From UHGV virus genome UHGV-1329780: a DNA stretch of 40,311 bases. One strand, 5' to 3'. A program made the position numbers and the translations under genes. Below, one piece after another: positions 1-35,256 of this stretch; positions within the stretch are counted from its first letter, which is position 1, and each line of letters begins with the position of its first letter. A model generated the notes under the pieces. The model worked only from the letters and a program-made list of their open reading frames with translations. It was not told where the DNA came from and made no database searches. Source of the stretch: a virus.

Positions 1-2184
1 CACGCCTTTTTTCGCCATCACACCAGCGTAATAATCCTTTGCGATCTCGTATGCCATTGATGCGCCCTGAGCGTCACCAGCAAATGCATCCTTCACCATG
101 TCAGAAAACTCAAGGCGAAGATCAGCATCTTTAGGCATCGGAATACCTTTCGCATCATCAGTACCTTTACGAGCCGCCGCGCCAGCAAGAATTGTCTGCG
201 CAGCGGTTTCAGGAGACACGGAAACATCCGGATTAAACCAGTTTTTTTCTGCCAAAATACCACCAGGCTTATCCATCAGTATCCCGGCAACGGCAGCAGA
301 TGGAGCGTTGGCACTGATCTGCTGTAGTGCTGACATATACACCTGCCCACCACCAGTGCTCTGCCTGATGGTATCGAGATATGCTGCCTGTTGGGAAACT
401 GGAGCATCACGAAAGAAAACACCGATCTGATTGGCCTCGTCTTTGGAAAAGAACGTCAGTGGAGTGCCATATGACTTAGCAAGGTCACTGACCTGAGCGG
501 CACGCAAGGCAACGCTCTGTCCAAAGTTATCCTTATTGCTCATGTCGATAGGCTTTGCCTGTCCGGAGGCAAGAGAGAACTGCACAGGATCCGACTGCCG
601 CTGCTTTATCACCTGATTTGCAGCCGAAACAACGTTGTCATAAAGAGTTGCGCGTGCCGCATACCCCTCCCCTGTATCACCAGTATCCGGGCGTAATTGC
701 TCAACATATGCTGTAATGCTGCTTGTCGGCATGTTGCGGAAAGAGCCTATATACTGTCCGGCGATCTGCGTATTCTTAAACTCGGTATATCGCAGGTTTC
801 CTTCTCTGACTCCATAAGCTGCAATAAAATCATCCTCACCAGGTGGGTTAGGAAATTCAATGCCACGCATATACGCAGCCGTCGCATCGCGAACCCGGCT
901 GTCGAGCATCGTTTTATATTCAGCCTGCTGTTGTCTGGCTAGTGCATCAGTCTGTCGCAACACGCTGGCCTGATCTGATTCACTTAAAGCATCGAACCAG
1001 GCTACACCGGTATAACGTTTATTTTTTGTCGGTAGCTGAGAAAGCCCCAGCGCAGCACTAACACCTGCAGTTAACTGCTGATCACTGTATGGCTGGCTAC
1101 CGTTTTCATGATGGATAATGGCTGCACAAAGCGCCTTCAGGGTATCAGGATTTGATGCATCGAGAGGCTCATCAGCAGAAACGCCAAGTTGTTCGCACAC
1201 TGCTTTGATATACGACATAGTGTCATTTTTATCAGTAGGCGGTGCCCAGCGATTAATTATCTCGCTGACGGTATCAATACCCTGCCGCTGATACGACATC
1301 AGGTTCCGCCCTAATGCACGAATACCGTGTTCAGGGGTTTCGAATTTGGCAAAGCGACCATCATCACCAGTCTGCCCAACCCACGGATTAGTTTTGCTGT
1401 ATTCAAGATTGCCGGGGTTATTGTTGCGTATACCGCGGGTACGATCGGAAGAGCCACTATCTGCTACAGCACGGCGAGAACCAGCAGCAGTATCGCTTAA
1501 CTCGCCGTTTTGCTGTCTTACCTGAAGATAGTTTGCTCCAATAGCATTTTGAGCAGTTGCTTTTGCTGTTGCTTCTTTAAACTCGATTTTCTTGGCCTGG
1601 ATTTGCTCGTCACTCCAGCCATGTGCAATGCCGTAATCCTCAATTTGCTGGAAAGTTTGCTTATTAGCCAATACGTATGCGGCGTTGTCGCCATACAATG
1701 CTGCGGCATTTTTACCATTGTTCAGCAGCGTAGCCTGAAACTGGCCTTCTTCGTAGGCATTTATTTGCCCTATCTCGTGCCGCCCGGCCTGCGTAGTGAA
1801 CTGAATGCGCTGCTGCTGCGCCTGCTGCATGAAAGCATTACGAGCCTGTTCATCCGGCAGCGACATAGCCAGTTGTTCGACCTGAGCATCAAACTGCTGC
1901 GTATACTCCTGACCTTTTCCAATAGCATTTTTCCCTTTCAGGTTAAGCAAACCTGTTTCAGGGTTATTCAGCAGATCGCTGCTTATCTGGCTTAAGCTAA
2001 GAGAAGCATCCTGAGCCATAGCAACATTCGCACGCTGTTTTGCCTGCGCAATAATACCTGCATATTGCTCTGCAACATCGCCAAGTACATCACCGACATT
2101 TGGTGTCTGAAACGATGAGAATCCCTGCGTCGAAATCCCTCTGCTCTGAACCTGACGGCCCGATGTTGTTGGTACAACTGGCAT
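1..2184 (-). CDS. Internal virion (ejection/core) protein, N-terminal ~728 codons; 3' end runs off the window start
   Basis: Uninterrupted minus-strand frame from ATG at 2182-2184 (AAGGGG RBS upstream) to position 1, not listed in the ORF track because it has no in-window stop. Conserved-looking block TRGIRNNNPGNLEYSKTNPW at about 1381-1440. Sits after two small internal proteins in a podovirus-like core module. Confidence 0.6.
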   Translation of the reverse strand, partial: MPVVPTTSGRQVQSRGISTQGFSSFQTPNVGDVLGDVAEQYAGIIAQAKQRANVAMAQDASLSLSQISSDLLNNPETGLLNLKGKNAIGKGQEYTQQFDAQVEQLAMSLPDEQARNAFMQQAQQQRIQFTTQAGRHEIGQINAYEEGQFQATLLNNGKNAAALYGDNAAYVLANKQTFQQIEDYGIAHGWSDEQIQAKKIEFKEATAKATAQNAIGANYLQVRQQNGELSDTAAGSRRAVADSGSSDRTRGIRNNNPGNLEYSKTNPWVGQTGDDGRFAKFETPEHGIRALGRNLMSYQRQGIDTVSEIINRWAPPTDKNDTMSYIKAVCEQLGVSADEPLDASNPDTLKALCAAIIHHENGSQPYSDQQLTAGVSAALGLSQLPTKNKRYTGVAWFDALSESDQASVLRQTDALARQQQAEYKTMLDSRVRDATAAYMRGIEFPNPPGEDDFIAAYGVREGNLRYTEFKNTQIAGQYIGSFRNMPTSSITAYVEQLRPDTGDTGEGYAARATLYDNVVSAANQVIKQRQSDPVQFSLASGQAKPIDMSNKDNFGQSVALRAAQVSDLAKSYGTPLTFFSKDEANQIGVFFRDAPVSQQAAYLDTIRQSTGGGQVYMSALQQISANAPSAAVAGILMDKPGGILAEKNWFNPDVSVSPETAAQTILAGAAARKGTDDAKGIPMPKDADLRLEFSDMVKDAFAGDAQGASMAYEIAKDYYAGVMAKKGV

Positions 2185-2196
2185 CTTATTATCCCC

Positions 2197-2736
2197 TTAT
2201 CGACCGGTTGGAGTGCCAACAGCAGCAGAAATCGGCGCAGCCTTCTGAGAGAACGGGCTCCACGTTCCGCCGCCCATCTGGTATGCGCCGTATGCTTTTA
2301 GTGGTGCCGTTAACAAAGTGCTGGTCATCGATGATTTAGCAGCCGACTGAGCAGCAGCCCCCTGTGCCTGAGCATTCATTCCCTGAACCTGATACCCATA
2401 TGCCTCACGCTGAGCATTATTCACTGTCGTTAACGCATCAAGAGTGCCGAACTGAGCATTATCCGCAAAAACGTCAAGAGCTGTTCCGCTACTTAATTCC
2501 GCACCGGTAGCCCCCATAGTGGCCGCCGCAGTGCCTGAGCGTTGACGCATTTCACGACGACGCTGATCCGCTTCAATATTCCCACGATTGATTGAATCCT
2601 GTGCCTGAGCTTCAGCAATTTCAGCATTCCGATCAGCTATGGCTGACTGGTATTTTGCCTGCTTGCTCTGGCTGTACATTGACGCGGCTGTGGATGCCAC
2701 TGTGACGGCAACCAAAGCGATGGCTGGGTTACACAT
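2197..2736 (-). CDS. Small internal virion protein with N-terminal hydrophobic segment
   Basis: 179 aa; GGAGAG RBS; TAATG overlap with the upstream gene; N-terminal AIALVAVTVASTAA hydrophobic stretch and Ala/Gln-rich body; position equivalent to T7 gp14. Confidence 0.45.
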   Translation of the reverse strand: MCNPAIALVAVTVASTAASMYSQSKQAKYQSAIADRNAEIAEAQAQDSINRGNIEADQRRREMRQRSGTAAATMGATGAELSSGTALDVFADNAQFGTLDALTTVNNAQREAYGYQVQGMNAQAQGAAAQSAAKSSMTSTLLTAPLKAYGAYQMGGGTWSPFSQKAAPISAAVGTPTGR

Positions 2737-3200
2737 TATTTTCTCTCCATGTGAAATCTGTGGAAATTAAGACCAAGAGCACCATAAGGCGCGGCTTCTT
2801 CAAGCCTGAATCCAAGCCAGTGCAGCCATGCTTTGGCAACATGGTTTCGCTCGTCGACGTAGTTTTCCAGGCGCGGATAAACTGCCAGCATCTGCTGCAA
2901 TACAGGGCGGCAGTGGCGAAGAAATGTCTTCTGATATTTTTCAATACGGCTGGTTCCTACCAGCCAGGGCGTACCATTGCCACCGATCATTGACGCCGGA
3001 GATACGCCAAACATGGTTACCAGTTCTCCGTTCGCAAATCCTGACCAGGCCATAGTCGCAGTACGCAGACCAACACGCAGCGCATCTTCGGTAGTCATCA
3101 GTGATACCGCATACAGTTCGTCAATATCAGCCTGACGAACATCCGGCAAAATCATCTGAAGATGCTCTTCGGTTGCGGGAATAATTTGAACATCAATCAT
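2736..3200 (-). CDS. Virion/assembly protein of unknown function
   Basis: 154 aa; start codon overlaps the stop of the 823-aa gene (translational coupling) inside the structural operon. Confidence 0.4.
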   Translation of the reverse strand: MIDVQIIPATEEHLQMILPDVRQADIDELYAVSLMTTEDALRVGLRTATMAWSGFANGELVTMFGVSPASMIGGNGTPWLVGTSRIEKYQKTFLRHCRPVLQQMLAVYPRLENYVDERNHVAKAWLHWLGFRLEEAAPYGALGLNFHRFHMERK

Positions 3201-11804: not shown

Positions 11805-11881
11805 GTGGCATTAGCTCAGTTGGACAGAGCAACCGCCTTCTAAGCGGTTGGTCGCAGGTTCGAATCCTGCATGCCGCGCCA
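11805..11881 (+). tRNA. tRNA-Arg (anticodon TCT, reads AGA)
   Basis: Hand-folded cloverleaf: acceptor GTGGCAT/ATGCCGC (one G-U pair), D stem GCTC/GAGC with A20 in the D loop, anticodon stem ACCGC/GCGGT, loop CTTCTAA giving anticodon TCT, T stem GCAGG/CCTGC with TTCGAAT loop, discriminator G and encoded CCA. Confidence 0.9.
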
Positions 11882-12103
11882 GAATCACGCCTAAGGACCG
11901 TGATGCCAGAAGTTCCAGGGGCTTGGCGGTGATGGTTTCCCTTGAAGGACTATCACCGCCCTTTTTACAGCAGGACGCCATTGCGATGACTTCATGCTGT
12001 AAACCCGTACAGCCACGGAAGGCATAACTCATTGCTTCCAGTTCGCCCGGTTCGCCGGGCATTTTTTTGCTTGATGACCGCAAATTACCTTAAAGGTATA
12101 ATC

Positions 12104-12922
12104 ATGAAAAACTTCAAGGTAATTAGCATGTTTGAATCGTTCAAAGAGCTGTTTTTATCTACTGCCAATACTGCCGTGAATCGAGCCAAAAACCCTGTGC
12201 TTGGTGCTTTTGTTATGTCCTGGTGCGCCTTCAACTGGAAATCAATTCTTTATCTATTTTTTAGCAAATCAAACATAATAGATAAAATTTCATATATCTC
12301 AGATAACAGCACATGGAAAACTGTTATGTTTTATCCATGCTTATCTGTAATTGCTATCTGCTGCCTATTACCATGGGTAAACAATATCATTAACGTATGG
12401 CAAGCAAAGCCTCTTGATAATAATGACTCAATCGAAAATCACCTGAAGGCAAGAAAAATCCAGCGTGAAACCAGACTGCAGAGGTTATTAGCTAAAAAAG
12501 ATGTTACATACGACAAAGTTAAGACTGGCGCGGAAAAAGACATCCAAGAGATGAAAGAAGAGATTATTCGATCAAAGAATAGTATGGGGGAATTGACTGC
12601 CGAGTTGAAAGCTAAAGATGACGAATTGAGATCCGCCAGTGCTCAGTTAGCAGCTCTAAATCATTCATTAAAAGAGATATCGGAAACTCTGGGAAGAATG
12701 AATGAGGCATATAAGACCCTCCAAAATGATTTCGACGAATACAAACTCAAATACCCTGAAAAATCTCAAATAAAAAGCCTTGCACTTGGCAACGGCCAAA
12801 CAATTAGCAACTTTTTGGAGCAACACAACTTATCCGGATTAAAATCTGGTAAGCCAGACGTTTTTCATAACTTTGGTGTTCTATCTGGATTATCAGGTTT
12901 CGAGGATAAAAATAAAGACTAA
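12104..12922 (+). CDS. AT-rich moron protein: two predicted transmembrane helices plus C-terminal coiled coil (candidate superinfection exclusion / abortive infection protein)
   Basis: About 272 aa from ATG 12104 (alternative ATG 12128); hydrophobic segments PVLGAFVMSWCAFNW and VMFYPCLSVIAICCLLPWV followed by a Lys/Glu/Leu-rich heptad region; AT-rich with 5 of 8 Arg codons AGA/AGG and several ATA codons; opposite strand to the flanking late genes. Confidence 0.6.
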   Translation: MKNFKVISMFESFKELFLSTANTAVNRAKNPVLGAFVMSWCAFNWKSILYLFFSKSNIIDKISYISDNSTWKTVMFYPCLSVIAICCLLPWVNNIINVWQAKPLDNNDSIENHLKARKIQRETRLQRLLAKKDVTYDKVKTGAEKDIQEMKEEIIRSKNSMGELTAELKAKDDELRSASAQLAALNHSLKEISETLGRMNEAYKTLQNDFDEYKLKYPEKSQIKSLALGNGQTISNFLEQHNLSGLKSGKPDVFHNFGVLSGLSGFEDKNKD

Positions 12923-25120: not shown

Positions 25121-25420
25121 GTGAGAAAGTTAAGCCGACTTGAAAAATATCACATGAATAAGGTTTCAATGCGCAGTCCGTCAAAGATTGTCGCCGTTAC
25201 TCCTGCGGCGATAGAGATCGAAAAACGCGCGATTGAAAGAGAGAAAAAAGGGCAATTCCGCATTGCCGCTCACCTTTGGCTTCAGTGTATGGATGTTGCT
25301 TCTGGTGATGTTGAACGTGCAAGGATCGCGGTTCGCAGGGACCAATGTATCACAAAAGGTAACGGCCTTCGCCGTGGCGACTATAGCGGCATAGGATGTT
25401 GTGGGGTGGTTTATGACTAA
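25121..25420 (+). CDS. Hypothetical small protein (possibly PerC-like regulator)
   Basis: 99 aa, GTG start with GAGGG RBS; the PerC-like assignment is a weak guess by eye only. Confidence 0.35.
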   Translation: MRKLSRLEKYHMNKVSMRSPSKIVAVTPAAIEIEKRAIEREKKGQFRIAAHLWLQCMDVASGDVERARIAVRRDQCITKGNGLRRGDYSGIGCCGVVYD

Positions 25421-26063
25421 GAAATACACACTAATCTATGCAGATCCACCCTGGGTATACCGGGACAAAGCCGCAGATGGTAATCGCGGTGCCGGTTTTA
25501 AATATCCGGTTATGAGTGTGCTGGATATCTGCCGCCTTCCTGTGTGGGATTTGGCCGATGAAAACTGTCTGTTGGCCATGTGGTGGGTGCCAACACAACC
25601 ACTCGAAGCACTAAAAGTTGTTGAAGCCTGGGGATTCCGTCTGATGACGATGAAGGGCTTCACGTGGATAAAATGTGGTAGTCGACAACCAGATAAACTG
25701 GTTATGGGTATGGGACACATGACTCGCGCCAATAGTGAAGATTGCCTGTTTGCGGTAAAGGGAAAACTACCTACGCGCATTAATGCAGGGATCGTTCAGT
25801 CATTTACCGCACCGCGGCTTGAGCATTCAAGAAAGCCAGATATCGTTCGTGAAAAACTTGTGCAATTATTAGGCGATGTTTCTCGCATTGAACTGTTCGC
25901 CCGCCAGACGTCTCATGGCTTCGATGTTTGGGGTAATCAGTGCGAAGACCCGGCAGTGCAACTACACCCTGGATACGCGTTGGATATTGGCGGATTAACA
26001 AATGCATTCAGCAATGCTCCGCTGTCACCAACAGACATCCAGGGGCGGGAGCGTGCTGCATGA
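25413..26063 (+). CDS. MT-A70 family DNA N6-adenine methyltransferase
   Basis: About 216 aa from ATG 25413; catalytic LIYADPPW motif near the N-terminus; no adjacent restriction or specificity gene. Confidence 0.75.
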   Translation: MTKKYTLIYADPPWVYRDKAADGNRGAGFKYPVMSVLDICRLPVWDLADENCLLAMWWVPTQPLEALKVVEAWGFRLMTMKGFTWIKCGSRQPDKLVMGMGHMTRANSEDCLFAVKGKLPTRINAGIVQSFTAPRLEHSRKPDIVREKLVQLLGDVSRIELFARQTSHGFDVWGNQCEDPAVQLHPGYALDIGGLTNAFSNAPLSPTDIQGRERAA

Positions 26064-26257: not shown

Positions 26258-27508
26258 TTATTCCCCCGCCATCCACTTCTCAAACTTCGACGGGGAGAAC
26301 GGAATCAGATCCGTATGCTCCCCGTCAATCCATGAATCAATCATATCGGCCCACTGCTGCAACATGTAGGCGCGCTGTCTGGCGTATTCCGCTTTGTTAT
26401 ATACGGCGCGCACACCTTTCTGCTCATGTGCCAGAGCCTTTTCAATCCAGTCTGAAGGATAACCAGCCTCATGCAACAACGTACTGGCTGTACGGCGCAT
26501 ATCATGTACAGTGAAGTCCTGAATATGCTCACCATCTTCATTTATTATTTTCACCGTTCTGTCGATCAGAGAGTTCAGCGCGGCATTAGATAATGGCTTC
26601 CGGAAATTGTAACGACCAGGAACCAGATATTCACTTCCACCAGCGCACATCTGCAACCCGACCAATATATCCTGTGCCTGTTTGGGCAGGTAAATAACGT
26701 GCGCCCGGCTTCCCTTCATGCGGTCTGGAGGAATTGTCCATGTCCATTTTTTAAAATCTATTTCATCCCACGTTGCATTGGTGAATTCGCCCTTACGAAC
26801 CATAGTGATAAGCACCAGTTTTAAAGCCATTTTCATAGTGCCCATAGCACCAATGGCATCCAGCGTGCGGAAGAACAGGCCAATTTCTTCTGGTGTCAGT
26901 GTTCGCTCTCGTGGTTTAAATATGGCGATAGACGAAGGTTTAATGTCAGCCGCAGGATTAAACAAACCATGACCACGGTCATTGGCGTGACGGTATACGC
27001 TACTGATGATCTCCCTGGCCTGCACTGCTGTTGCCCGGCCACCGCGTTCGACAATCCGGTCACACAAATCACGAACCATCGATGTGGTAATTTCAGCCAT
27101 CATTTTGTTACCAAGAACAGGAAGTATGTCACGGTCGATCACCGCCTGCTTCATTGCGCGGGTACTGTCAGCCAGGATGACGTGTTTCATATAACTGTCG
27201 GTATGTACCGCAAACGTCTCGGCACCACGAATCTTTTTGATACCGTCACGTTTAGCCGCAGCCGGTGACTGGCCTGCTTTAAGCAGCTTCTTTGCAGCAA
27301 TCAGTTCTTCTCGCGCTTCTGCCAGGCTGATACCGTCACGCCCATACTGCCCGATTACCAGTGTTTCGCGGCGACCGTTGATACGGTAGTCATAGCGAAA
27401 CGAGACCGTGCCTGACGTAAGCACAGCTACATACAGCCCGTCACGATCGGAGACCTTGTACAGTTTGTCCTGCGGCTTGAGGTTTTTTAATTTTGTATCG
27501 GTAAGCAC
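26258..27508 (-). CDS. int: Tyrosine integrase, P4-type (N-terminal arm-binding domain)
   Basis: 416 aa; N-terminal LTDTKLKNLKPQDKLYKVSDRDGLYVAVLTSGTVSFRYDYRINGRRE matches the P4-integrase arm-binding domain; C-terminal catalytic region with HDMRRT and a tyrosine-containing tail. Confidence 0.85.
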   Translation of the reverse strand: MLTDTKLKNLKPQDKLYKVSDRDGLYVAVLTSGTVSFRYDYRINGRRETLVIGQYGRDGISLAEAREELIAAKKLLKAGQSPAAAKRDGIKKIRGAETFAVHTDSYMKHVILADSTRAMKQAVIDRDILPVLGNKMMAEITTSMVRDLCDRIVERGGRATAVQAREIISSVYRHANDRGHGLFNPAADIKPSSIAIFKPRERTLTPEEIGLFFRTLDAIGAMGTMKMALKLVLITMVRKGEFTNATWDEIDFKKWTWTIPPDRMKGSRAHVIYLPKQAQDILVGLQMCAGGSEYLVPGRYNFRKPLSNAALNSLIDRTVKIINEDGEHIQDFTVHDMRRTASTLLHEAGYPSDWIEKALAHEQKGVRAVYNKAEYARQRAYMLQQWADMIDSWIDGEHTDLIPFSPSKFEKWMAGE

Positions 27509-27825
27509 AATTCACCCGTATAGAAACCATTTTCATGACGGTATGAGAGTATACCTTTAAGGTAATACCGTCACCTGTACCGACGAAAAATATGGTGTAG
27601 AGTGAATAGAAATGAATACATAAAAACAAAAACCCTCTGTAAAAACAGAGGGTTGAGTTAGTATCTGAATAGGAATGATTTGCTATGAGTTAGCTGTTAA
27701 TCATTCCCACTCAATTATTTACGGCATGCATAACCAATTGGCTGGTAACAACTTTCTGTAACCTGATTTTCACCGTACCGTTTTATATACCGTCACCGGA
27801 AATCAGTACCATGAAAAATGCCATG
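27509..27825. other. Candidate attP region between integrase and the lysis cassette
   Basis: Noncoding; ATACCGTCACC at 27565-27575 and 27787-27797, with GATACCGTCACG twice more inside the int 5' coding region (27239-27250, 27329-27340); inverted repeat GGAATGATT/AATCATTCC at 27672-27707; variant dyad ATACCTTTAAGGTAA at 27551-27565. Core crossover site not identifiable. Confidence 0.4.
27620..27652 (-). terminator. Intrinsic terminator ending the late/lysis operon
   Basis: Hairpin CCCTCTG-TAAAAA-CAGAGGG at 27633-27652 followed on the minus strand by a T-rich run (complement of AAAAACAAAAA at 27621-27632). Confidence 0.6.
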
Positions 27826-29904: not shown

Positions 29905-29931
29905 CCCGCAAAATATTGCGGGCTTTTTTTT
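29905..29931 (+). terminator. Hairpin plus T8 tract at the tailspike 3' end (terminator-like on the plus strand)
   Basis: CCCGCAA-AATA-TTGCGGG followed by C and T8 on the plus strand, overlapping the tailspike stop codon region; preceded by an AT-rich 280-bp intergenic segment. Confidence 0.45.
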
Positions 29932-32900
29932 AACGTTCTTCCAGAGACTGAATCCGCTCTTTTATCTTATCCATTTCTCTGCGCTGCCATGCTGCCTCGA
30001 TATAGAATAAGAGATCAGGTCTGACCCCCCATCTAGATCCTGCTGGCGTTATTTCAACGCGCTCAATGATGTCTTCCATTACCATCACTGGATTATCATC
30101 CTCATCAACAATGATGCTCCCGTCATTATCAGTCAGCGGCATTTCCCTTTGGCCAGTAATGACATCATCATATACTGCGGGATAATCGTCATAGCAAAGA
30201 AAGGCATAGCGGCATGTTGTGCTTTCTTCTTCCATGAGTCCGTGAGAAATAAGAACATCACGAAGTTGCTGCGCGATTACACCATGATGTATCCTCGCCC
30301 CTTCTTCCCCCTTTATAGCGACAGCGTTCAGCCATTTATAAGCGATATACCTGACGTCACCCCAGGCATCCAGCAATGCTTCGTCAGGAGAGACCGGCTC
30401 TGTCTTTAATGTTCCGTCACTGGTAACCACAGGATTGGAGCCAAGATAAACTGTCGAGAACCTGTTTCCCGGACCACCAAGAGCATTTACATTATCAAGA
30501 TAAGGTTTAACATCTCCGTTCTCAAAAAGATGTTCGAGTGCGTTATATACCGCGCGACGTGGAGTACTGCTTCCGGAACCATGCAACGTTATCATTGCAC
30601 CATCTGCTGAAGACGTTGTTTCACCGCCGCTAACGATTAATCTCTGAGCGGTAACATCATCAGACGGTACTTTCTTCGCAATAATGGCGTAATTACCCTC
30701 AAGTTTGACTTCCGCGCGAACTTGTCCTGATGTACCTGCATGGACAGTCAGTGACTGGACGGCAACATCATCTGTGAAATCAACGGGTACAGGAACCGTC
30801 CTCACGCCTGACGTCGACATAAAAGTAGGAAGCGTTCTGTTAGGAGTGGCTCCGTAGACAAAATCCCTTGAAACAAATTCTTCCTGTTTAATTTTCACCC
30901 TGAAACAATACAAATCAGCCGGGTGACCATCGTGAACATAAGGATATTTTCTGTTGTTATCCCCTATGCTCCATGGGTTTAGAAAGTCTTCCCCACCGAA
31001 AATGTAGTACAGCCAGTTGTCTTTGATACAAACTGAACCAACACCAACCGCAGAGTTAACTATTCCGCCCTGATAAATCTGATCAGTAACATTAACCCAC
31101 TCTACATTATCCAGACTCCACTCATTGACGTTAACTCTGGTCATAAATGTTCTTGGATAATTTCCTGCATAACGGTTATCAGGTTCTCCTCCTTCCCACT
31201 CACCAAATGCGCGCTCACTGCCAAAAATAATCAGCTCATCGCCAACTTTGGCAAAAGGAAGGTTTGAGTGATGAACATTATTTGGGAAGCGAAGAGAATT
31301 CCATGATGTACCTAAATCAGAGCTTCTGTGCAATGAACTACCGGGTTGAGTACTTAATGTCCCCCTGGTCGTCAGATACAGAATGCCATCATAATATTTT
31401 ACACATGGCTCAGATGCATTCGCCTCATATTCTGCAGGTATGCGTCTGCGAACAAAGCTACCAGGAGAACCGAAAGCATCAGAGAAATAGAGTATCCCAA
31501 GCTCGCGTGGACCAATATCACCATTATGGTAGCCAACAGCAAAACTGTTATCGCTAATCGTCGCAAAACTGTGAATCTCAGTAACAGGAGTGCTTCCGTC
31601 AACAAAAGAAGGAATAGTTCCAAGACTGGTTTTTCTCCATGGTGACGAGTGAAATGATGTACCAAAACTCCAGTATCTACCCTCGTTATTCTGATCCACA
31701 TCCTGGGTATTTTGCGTCGTAACTGTAAAAGTATTTTTATCAATAACAGTAGTCACCGTCATATTCCCGGTAACACCTGTAACACCAGAGTTTGAGAAGT
31801 TGACAAAATCACCAGCAAATAATCCGTGATCAGTAATGCGAATATAAGCGACTTGCTGATTTGCTGCTTTCGTTATACCACCATAAACGCGAAGGCTGCG
31901 ACTCATTGGGCGATCCCACAACTCTGCAACCTGCAGTTTATTTCCGCTCACGGTCCGCGTCTCAATTACAGCAAAAAGGCGATTTCTGACAACCCCCATA
32001 CTCATGCAGTGATAGTTAACTGTGGGATAGTTTTCATGTAAATCTGTAAGCCATTCCGGCGTTGTCCAGGTCTTCCCGTCATCTCCTGAGCGAACCCATG
32101 CAACATGGAGGTTATTTACACCATGGCGGTCTCCAGCCATAAAAGGCGCATAGATGACATTGTCATATACAAACGTTTTATCCTGCGTCCAGGCGTTGTA
32201 CCACGGTGTATCTGTAATTTTAAATAACTCTCCCTGGATAAAATCTTCAGAAGCATAAAAAAGAGGCTGGCCCGGTATTCTCTCAAATAAAAAACGAGCA
32301 TTTTTAAATCGACTGACATCCGGAAGAGTTGATACTTTAAAAGTAAGCCCTAATCCGTCAATTTTATAACCTGGAGATGAGGCTTCAAGGCACGCGCTTA
32401 TTGCAGTGGAATCGTCATTTATACCATCACCAACAGCTCCAAAATCTTTGGGGCTAATAGCATCACGCATTTTATCCTGGAACGTTCGGTACACAGCCCC
32501 AGAACCATACTGAATAAACCAACCAAAACCACCAACAACCCCGGCGATTGCAGCATCGACATAATTACGCATTGAGCGATTATTTACAGCGTCCTGCTCA
32601 AATGATGGATCTGCAAGGTTAGAAATTTTGTTTTGCTTTGCATCGTAATATTTTGCAAGCAAAGATGGTTTCATCAATGCACGTCTGAACCACCCAAAAC
32701 ATTGCTGGATCAGCATCGTCAGGTAGTCAAAGGCATCTTCATGCACTTCGGGGAAAAATTTTCCCTGATTGCGAAGGTCTGTCTCCTGCACTACATCAAG
32801 CACACGATCTATCGTAATTCGCCATCCAGTAGCAAGCGGAGACGGAAGAACCACAGAACCGCCACTATAAGTGCCCGCCCCAGTTACCGTATAACCGGTA

Positions 32901-33049
32901 TCCAGAACCAATTCTGTTACGTTTCCGTTCAGGTCAGACACCTGAACAACCAGGTCTGATTTTCTGAAAATTCGAAAAGTATACGGAAACGATGTCGTAA
33001 CGCCGTTACCGGTGTATTCGTTGTGGTCAACTTCGGTTGAGACCGTCAT
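29930..33049 (-). CDS. Tailspike protein with Asp-box (sialidase-like) motifs and C-terminal intramolecular-chaperone-like domain
   Basis: 1039 aa; GGAG RBS; N-terminal particle-binding-type domain; DFGAVGDGINDDSTAI motif; Asp-box-like SGDDGKTW and SSDLGTSW; C-terminal segment with HHGVIAQQLRDVL resembling self-cleaving chaperone domains of endosialidase-type tailspikes. Confidence 0.7.
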   Translation of the reverse strand: MTVSTEVDHNEYTGNGVTTSFPYTFRIFRKSDLVVQVSDLNGNVTELVLDTGYTVTGAGTYSGGSVVLPSPLATGWRITIDRVLDVVQETDLRNQGKFFPEVHEDAFDYLTMLIQQCFGWFRRALMKPSLLAKYYDAKQNKISNLADPSFEQDAVNNRSMRNYVDAAIAGVVGGFGWFIQYGSGAVYRTFQDKMRDAISPKDFGAVGDGINDDSTAISACLEASSPGYKIDGLGLTFKVSTLPDVSRFKNARFLFERIPGQPLFYASEDFIQGELFKITDTPWYNAWTQDKTFVYDNVIYAPFMAGDRHGVNNLHVAWVRSGDDGKTWTTPEWLTDLHENYPTVNYHCMSMGVVRNRLFAVIETRTVSGNKLQVAELWDRPMSRSLRVYGGITKAANQQVAYIRITDHGLFAGDFVNFSNSGVTGVTGNMTVTTVIDKNTFTVTTQNTQDVDQNNEGRYWSFGTSFHSSPWRKTSLGTIPSFVDGSTPVTEIHSFATISDNSFAVGYHNGDIGPRELGILYFSDAFGSPGSFVRRRIPAEYEANASEPCVKYYDGILYLTTRGTLSTQPGSSLHRSSDLGTSWNSLRFPNNVHHSNLPFAKVGDELIIFGSERAFGEWEGGEPDNRYAGNYPRTFMTRVNVNEWSLDNVEWVNVTDQIYQGGIVNSAVGVGSVCIKDNWLYYIFGGEDFLNPWSIGDNNRKYPYVHDGHPADLYCFRVKIKQEEFVSRDFVYGATPNRTLPTFMSTSGVRTVPVPVDFTDDVAVQSLTVHAGTSGQVRAEVKLEGNYAIIAKKVPSDDVTAQRLIVSGGETTSSADGAMITLHGSGSSTPRRAVYNALEHLFENGDVKPYLDNVNALGGPGNRFSTVYLGSNPVVTSDGTLKTEPVSPDEALLDAWGDVRYIAYKWLNAVAIKGEEGARIHHGVIAQQLRDVLISHGLMEEESTTCRYAFLCYDDYPAVYDDVITGQREMPLTDNDGSIIVDEDDNPVMVMEDIIERVEITPAGSRWGVRPDLLFYIEAAWQRREMDKIKERIQSLEER

Positions 33050-34627: not shown

Positions 34628-34795
34628 ATGACAGCGTTGAAAAATCGTACTCAGCACAATGAACAAGCCAAGCAATGCTGGGATGTCATTGGAAAAGTTA
34701 TGCTTGGCCGCGCAAGCAAAGAGCGCGACAAGGATATGGTTTACCAGACAGGAACATCTTTCAGCGACTTCAAGGCGGCATTTCGCTCCAAATAG
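34628..34795 (+). CDS. Small protein, first gene of a two-gene moron
   Basis: 55 aa (below the ORF-track cutoff); strong AGGAGG RBS at spacing 7; stop 20 nt before the next start. Confidence 0.45.
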   Translation: MTALKNRTQHNEQAKQCWDVIGKVMLGRASKERDKDMVYQTGTSFSDFKAAFRSK

Positions 34796-34815
34796 AAGCA
34801 CATCAGGAGTTTTCC

Positions 34816-35256
34816 TTGAAGTTTAACATTAGAATATCTAATAGTTTTCTACATGGGGAAAGCAACACCCCTTTCGCTGTAGACGGACCTTTCCTTACTG
34901 ATGATGAAATAAAAATCATACAAAGTTTTTTAGAGGATGTTGCCAATGGAAGGGCGCTTGTTGGAAAAAACAAGCCCTCGTGGGTTGATGATAACCATGA
35001 TAAAATTCCCGGCTCAGACAATTATGAGCAAGAGAATTATTGGCATTATCATTGTGGGCCAACATGGTATCCAAACACATTTAAGAATTATACCATTAAC
35101 TTAAATTTCAACCCTGGCGGAAGGCATTCTAATGAATGCATTCATTATGCAAAAAATGATAATGAAATTGTCATTGTTGGATTTTCAAGAGAACACATAC
35201 CTTTCCTTTCATCAGATGGAAACAACAATCCGCTTTTTAATGATGAAGAAGAATAG
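34816..35256 (+). CDS. AT-rich moron protein of unknown function (Asn/Asp-rich, acidic C-terminus)
   Basis: About 146 aa from TTG 34816 (AGGAG at spacing 6); AT-rich relative to flanking late genes; followed immediately by an intrinsic terminator; no family recognised by eye. Confidence 0.5.
   Translation: MKFNIRISNSFLHGESNTPFAVDGPFLTDDEIKIIQSFLEDVANGRALVGKNKPSWVDDNHDKIPGSDNYEQENYWHYHCGPTWYPNTFKNYTINLNFNPGGRHSNECIHYAKNDNEIVIVGFSREHIPFLSSDGNNNPLFNDEEE

Follow-up and report, generated by a model that had tools for sequence, protein, structure and literature searches.

A tailspike of GH58 endosialidase type in virus genome UHGV-1329780 joins a Uetakevirus anchor to a CUS-3-type enzyme

The virus genome UHGV-1329780, a stretch of 40,311 nucleotides (nt) that is referred to here as the window, carries a tailspike gene at 29930..33049 on the minus strand, and all features of this tailspike described below lie on that strand. 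In the list of open reading frames (ORFs) the gene has 1039 codons and a stop; it starts with ATG, and a GGAG is located upstream of the start. A sequence-only reading had proposed that the product is an endosialidase-type capsule depolymerase of a temperate phage, and had quoted four motifs from its 1039 amino acids (aa). The ORF list and a motif scan place the ORF and all four motifs where that reading had put them. SGDDGKTW occupies aa 321-328 (window 32066-32089), SSDLGTSW aa 576-583 (31301-31324), DFGAVGDGINDDSTAI aa 202-217 (32399-32446) and HHGVIAQQLRDVL aa 921-933 (30251-30289). A scan of the whole protein for the S-x-D-x-G-x-x-W pattern gives two matches only, which are the two Asp-box-like motifs.

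Pfam marks five domains back to back over aa 205-937 of the tailspike. The endosialidase N-terminal extension, End_N_terminal (PF12218), covers aa 205-271 (32237..32437) with an E-value of 5.9e-32. It is followed by the six-bladed catalytic propeller, End_beta_propel (PF12217), at aa 272-721 (30887..32236), where the match has an E-value of 1.4e-233 and spans the full profile (1-367). The lectin-like End_beta_barrel (PF12195), which binds polysialic acid, is inserted in the propeller at aa 383-465 (31655..31903, E 3.2e-46). The stalk, End_tail_spike (PF12219), takes up aa 722-876 (30422..30886, E 8.4e-78), and the fifth domain is the chaperone described below. A search of the tailspike protein against NCBIfam found nothing. 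The solved structures of endoNF, the endosialidase of phage K1F (1v0e, 3gvl), match aa 205-876 with E = 0 and 1048 bits, and 437 of the 665 aligned positions (66%) are identical. Another structural match to the tailspike is 4hiz, a solved chain that bears the name endosialidase (E 1.7e-271).

The comparison with K1F endoNF took in residues 246-910 and the chaperone domain. Over these parts the two proteins have in common the domain order, the fold-defining sequence, the catalytic residues, the Asp-boxes and a Ser-Lys pair (1v0e, 3gvl, 3gw6). The two Asp-boxes of the tailspike align with the endoNF counterparts SGDDGQTW and SRDIGQTW inside the endosialidase propeller, which bears out their earlier description as sialidase-type motifs. 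The domain scores, namely the End_beta_propel E-value of 1.4e-233 and the endoNF structure match, rule out a chance occurrence of the motifs. K1F itself is a lytic T7-like phage, and its spike has a T7-type N-terminal adaptor.

The critical active-site residues of endoNF are H350, R549, E581, R596 and R647, according to deep mutational scanning of the K1F spike (PMC12632334). All five are conserved in the alignment of the tailspike to 1v0e, as H309 (32123-32125), R515 (31505-31507), E547 (31409-31411), R562 (31364-31366) and R613 (31211-31213). By its sequence the tailspike is a member of the GH58 endosialidases, since the propeller, the two Asp-boxes, the critical residues, the inserted barrel and the stalk are all present.

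The last 163 residues (aa 877-1039, 29933..30421) correspond to the intramolecular chaperone, or self-cleaving domain, of endosialidases. Peptidase_S74 (PF13884, 'chaperone of endosialidase') matches aa 877-937 with an E-value of 1.7e-10, and position 1 of the profile falls on Ser877. The structure of the endoNF chaperone domain, 3gw6, matches the C-terminus of the tailspike with an E-value of 9e-57. The domain starts with SDGTLK, in which Ser877 (30419-30421) is followed five residues downstream by Lys882 (30404-30406). The Ser-Lys dyad is the self-cleavage pair of endosialidases (PMC3742443). In the crystallised chain of 3gw6 the Lys is conserved and an Ala stands at the position of Ser877. 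T876 of the tailspike aligns with T910, the last residue of the crystallised endoNF chain, and the predicted cleavage site is T876|S877. These matches support the earlier suggestion of a self-cleaving chaperone-like domain at the C-terminus; by its matches the segment is a Peptidase S74-type chaperone, which would undergo autoproteolysis.

The first part of the protein is a separate module. The 250 bp upstream of the gene together with gene nt 1-596 have 97.3% nucleotide identity to the spike of phage EC.W1-9, whose C-terminal part is unrelated to endosialidase and is annotated as an eliminase. In PHROGs, residues 1 to ~200 align with the opening ~160-200 positions of over 20 tail-spike families, which have C-terminal parts of different lengths. 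A third match to this part is PDB 8ck1 (Dpo31/Dpo36), over its N-terminal ~214 aa and with an E-value of 5e-33. Because of these three sets of matches, aa 1-199 (32453..33049) are taken to be the virion-anchor module typical of the genus, of the Uetakevirus or phiV10-epsilon15 type. Pfam has no match on aa 1-200 at E <= 0.1, and the 'T7-like tail fibre' label of the paper on phage vB_EcoP_ZX5 is not reproduced with Pfam. With a genus-type anchor in a genome of the same type, the protein is on this comparison a Uetakevirus tailspike.

Most of the remaining gene is shared with a prophage of another kind. Megablast and blastn find a block of 2393 nt (29959..32351, gene nt 699-3091) that is 99.5% identical to siaK1 (ABQ88383.1) of CUS-3, a P22-like prophage of Escherichia coli K1 RS218, and only 4 aa differ within aa 235-1025. 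On either side of this block the gene is still homologous to that of CUS-3 but has diverged from it, in the stretch of ~100 nt that separates the block from the anchor (aa 200-234, with the initial ~35 residues of the endosialidase N-terminal extension) and in the final 14 codons. The junction of the modules is located at aa ~200-234 and includes a GDGxxDD motif. A donor search with gene nt 580-705 against the phage collection returned only the same gene and, in tail proteins of the pectin-lyase fold, short matches to the motif. Anchors joined to swapped receptor domains are documented as the usual arrangement in receptor-binding proteins of phages, K1-specific ones included (PMC10408124). The separate anchor module of ~200 residues and the 99.5% DNA identity to CUS-3 both go beyond what the sequence-only reading had noticed.

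The CUS-3 spike has 981 aa in total and a P22-type head-binding N-terminus. The siaK1 enzyme, to which the tailspike is nearly identical, is on record with an assayed endo-alpha-sialidase activity (evidence code IDA). CUS-3 also has the O-acetyltransferase gene neuO, with AAGACTC repeats, directly downstream of its spike. A neuO-like phase-variable O-acetyltransferase was considered beside the present spike and rejected, because the AAGACTC repeat does not occur in the window and the 306 bp between the end of the spike gene and the holin gene are non-coding. The eliminase spike of EC.W1-9 and Dpo31/Dpo36 (8ck1) share the anchor with the tailspike, and in them too a GDGxxDD motif comes after it at the same position, but their receptor-binding parts are unrelated to endosialidase.

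The gene, its domains and the link to the host have already been documented, for ZX5 as well as for APEC O1 and numerous other genomes of E. coli. ORF7 of vB_EcoP_ZX5 (QTH80017.1) is the same gene (99.9% identical), from which the present one differs in 4 nt and 1 aa. ORF7 was described as having an endosialidase-like middle and an endosialidase intramolecular chaperone at its C-terminus, and ZX5 was isolated on, and plaques on, an O87:H52:K1 host strain (PMC9782041). The protein of E. coli APEC O1 (WP_000218907.1) is identical to the tailspike and is also the RefSeq entry in other K1 strains, under the name 'endosialidase catalytic beta-propeller domain-containing protein'. The ZX5 genome is likewise that of a Uetakevirus with attP at guaA, and outside the spike the window is for the most part ~97% identical to it. 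The window is 746 bp longer and some accessory regions differ, whereas the spike has no substantial difference.

The phage that carries the spike is of a temperate type. Window nt 1-25000 match ZX5, HEMP4, PAS61 and phiV10, all phiV10/epsilon15-like temperate podoviruses, at ~97% over 54-74% of their length. Two holin genes, a GH19 endolysin gene and a gene for a DUF2514 protein lie 3' of the spike and are followed by an integrase (26258..27508 in the ORF list). The attP core ATTGAGTGGGAATGATT has an exact single match at 27699..27715 on the minus strand, 190 bp upstream of the integrase. The core sequence and its role come from the ZX5 paper, which reports them for phiV10 and epsilon15 (PMC9782041). 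APEC O1 has the same lysis genes and then host genes directly. Since the integrase and the attP core follow the lysis genes at the place where APEC O1 has host genes, the window corresponds to an excised and circularly permuted form of the phage. With its integrase and attP, the window represents the genome of a temperate Uetakevirus in excised form, which agrees with the temperate carrier that had been proposed.

It is very likely that the tailspike is the GH58 endosialidase of this temperate Uetakevirus, and that it cleaves the polysialic-acid capsule of K1 strains and sets a K1 host range. The protein would be the single spike of a phiV10/epsilon15-like podovirus and, by analogy with endoNF, would be produced as a precursor and act as a trimer. 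Residues 1-199 would anchor the spike to the tail. Residues 205-876 would form the endo-alpha-2,8-sialidase, with its N-terminal extension, its propeller with the polysialic-acid-binding barrel and its stalk. Residues 877-1039 would drive the folding of the stalk and then release themselves at Ser877 by means of Ser877 and Lys882. The mature spike would bind and cleave the K1 capsule of E. coli so that the virion tunnels to the outer membrane, and the host range of the phage would be directed to K1 strains. For this exact protein we infer trimerisation, autoproteolysis and activity.

Some differences from endoNF weigh against full equivalence of the two enzymes. The residue that we take to be the stalk-site residue of endoNF, Q853, is Met819 in the tailspike, K410 of endoNF is Gly369, and the tailspike has a 7-aa insertion (aa 482-488) that endoNF lacks and CUS-3 shares. 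K410 was reported to be tolerant in phage context in the K1F mutational scan (PMC12632334). The two substitutions would suit a spike that has kept the endosialidase fold as a catalytically dead or weakened adhesin and only binds polysialic acid, and the interruption of the gene by an IS3-family element in some E. coli genomes indicates that it is not always maintained. However, the five critical active-site residues are all conserved, only 4 aa separate the protein from a siaK1 with annotated, assayed activity, the ORF is intact, and a phage whose spike differs by 1 aa (ZX5) plaques on a K1 host. A loss of catalysis is therefore very improbable. The depolymerase claim of the sequence-only reading is well supported by the Pfam domains, the 66% identity to endoNF and the retained active-site residues.

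It is even less probable, to the point of being nearly negligible, that the spike is instead a beta-helix (pectate-lyase-fold) depolymerase or a GH33-type exosialidase acting on another capsule or on O-antigen. The GDGxxDD motif gives a weak match to Pect-lyase_RHGA_epim (E 0.035) and the Asp-boxes give a weak match to BNR_2 (E 0.0034), but both are below the Pfam cut-offs and extend over ~20-35 residues. The same residues lie under endosialidase-specific domains (E 1e-32 to 1e-233) and the endoNF crystal structure, and the protein has no room for a beta-helix domain besides these. The GH33-type exosialidase was rejected because the sub-threshold BNR_2 match lies under the full match to the endosialidase propeller. 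A right-handed beta-helix starting from the DFGAVGDG motif was likewise rejected, since the pectate-lyase-like match covers 21 residues at 14 bits against a cut-off of 27 and the residues downstream are endosialidase domains. The beta-helix-type motif of the sequence-only reading is present, and the resemblance is real, as GDGxxDD also occurs after the same anchor and at the same position in the beta-helix spike of EC.W1-9. The motif (DFGAVGDGINDDSTAI, with DFGAVGDG) does not mark a beta-helix domain, however, but is the first part of End_N_terminal at the module junction.

The distribution of the endosialidase gene was surveyed in 5426 complete E. coli genomes. The full tailspike gene is present in 72 genomes, the CUS-3-type junction in 154, and the catalytic block in 181, which include strains named K1 in their records, such as the O1:K1:H7 avian pathogenic E. 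coli (APEC) strains E16002 and E18006. Because 72 and 154 add up to more than 181, approximately 30-45 genomes must carry both spike types. The presence of both was confirmed from the coordinates of two matches in EC69, APEC O18, N1 and MS20659. Both spike genes were read in EC69 and APEC O18. Within the shared block of 2393 nt, 11-12 sites distinguish the two types, and in EC69 the two copies still differ at 11 nt. Five diagnostic sites in a row carry the Uetakevirus-type allele in the CUS-3-type copy of APEC O18, and the alleles at both ends are those of CUS-3. Such a pattern, seen in a handful of sequences, is consistent with gene conversion between the spikes of two prophages in one chromosome, but ancestral polymorphism could also account for it. 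Active exchange of the endosialidase module by gene conversion between co-resident Uetakevirus prophages (guaA) and unrelated P22-like CUS-3 prophages is a tentative proposal, to which we give somewhat less than an even chance.

An IS3-family element interrupts the endosialidase gene in the three chromosomes NZ_AP045810.1, NZ_CP101741.1 and NZ_CP012635.1. Some K1 lysogens therefore carry an inactivated spike.

Several other features were observed in the window. A GC-rich hairpin, CCCGCAAAATATTGCGGG, is located at 29905-29922 and starts 8 nt after the stop codon of the spike. A run of A precedes it on the spike strand, which gives a T-run on the opposite strand, and the hairpin may act as a terminator in both directions or in the opposite direction. 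The 306 bp that lead from it to the holin gene are AT-rich. A tRNA-Arg (anticodon TCT) at 11805-11881 on the plus strand is followed by a 296-aa ORF at 12032-12922, also on the plus strand. This stretch has a GC content of 39.6% vs ~50%, and its strand is opposite to that of the adjoining portal and terminase genes. The 296-aa ORF matches phrog_4780 (unknown function) and looks like a moron. It also has weak PADLOC and NCBIfam matches to SMC-like coiled coils; the SMC-like identity offered by PADLOC was treated as non-specific, since the match is weak and limited to coiled-coil regions.

A 193-aa ORF at 34675-35256 on the plus strand lies between a BRO-N antirepressor gene and large virion-protein genes. 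PHROGs place this ORF in phrog_5954 (unknown function), and searches of it in Pfam, NCBIfam and PADLOC found nothing. Near the integrase, a 220-aa ORF at 25401-26063 on the plus strand matches the PADLOC model MTase_II (type II DNA methyltransferase) with an E-value of 1e-77 and is apparently the counterpart of the adenine methyltransferase in the ZX5 annotation.

The contribution of this analysis is a clean annotation of the tailspike and a clear picture of its mosaic structure, in which a Uetakevirus anchor is joined to a CUS-3-type enzyme. Endosialidases are used as polysialic-acid reagents and are candidate anti-virulence enzymes. K1 is the capsule type of neonatal-meningitis strains and of many urinary-tract and avian pathogenic strains, and the spike would direct this temperate phage to E. 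coli hosts with a K1 capsule. If gene conversion between the two spike types holds in general, co-resident prophages may act as a shared pool that homogenises a receptor-binding module across phage genera.

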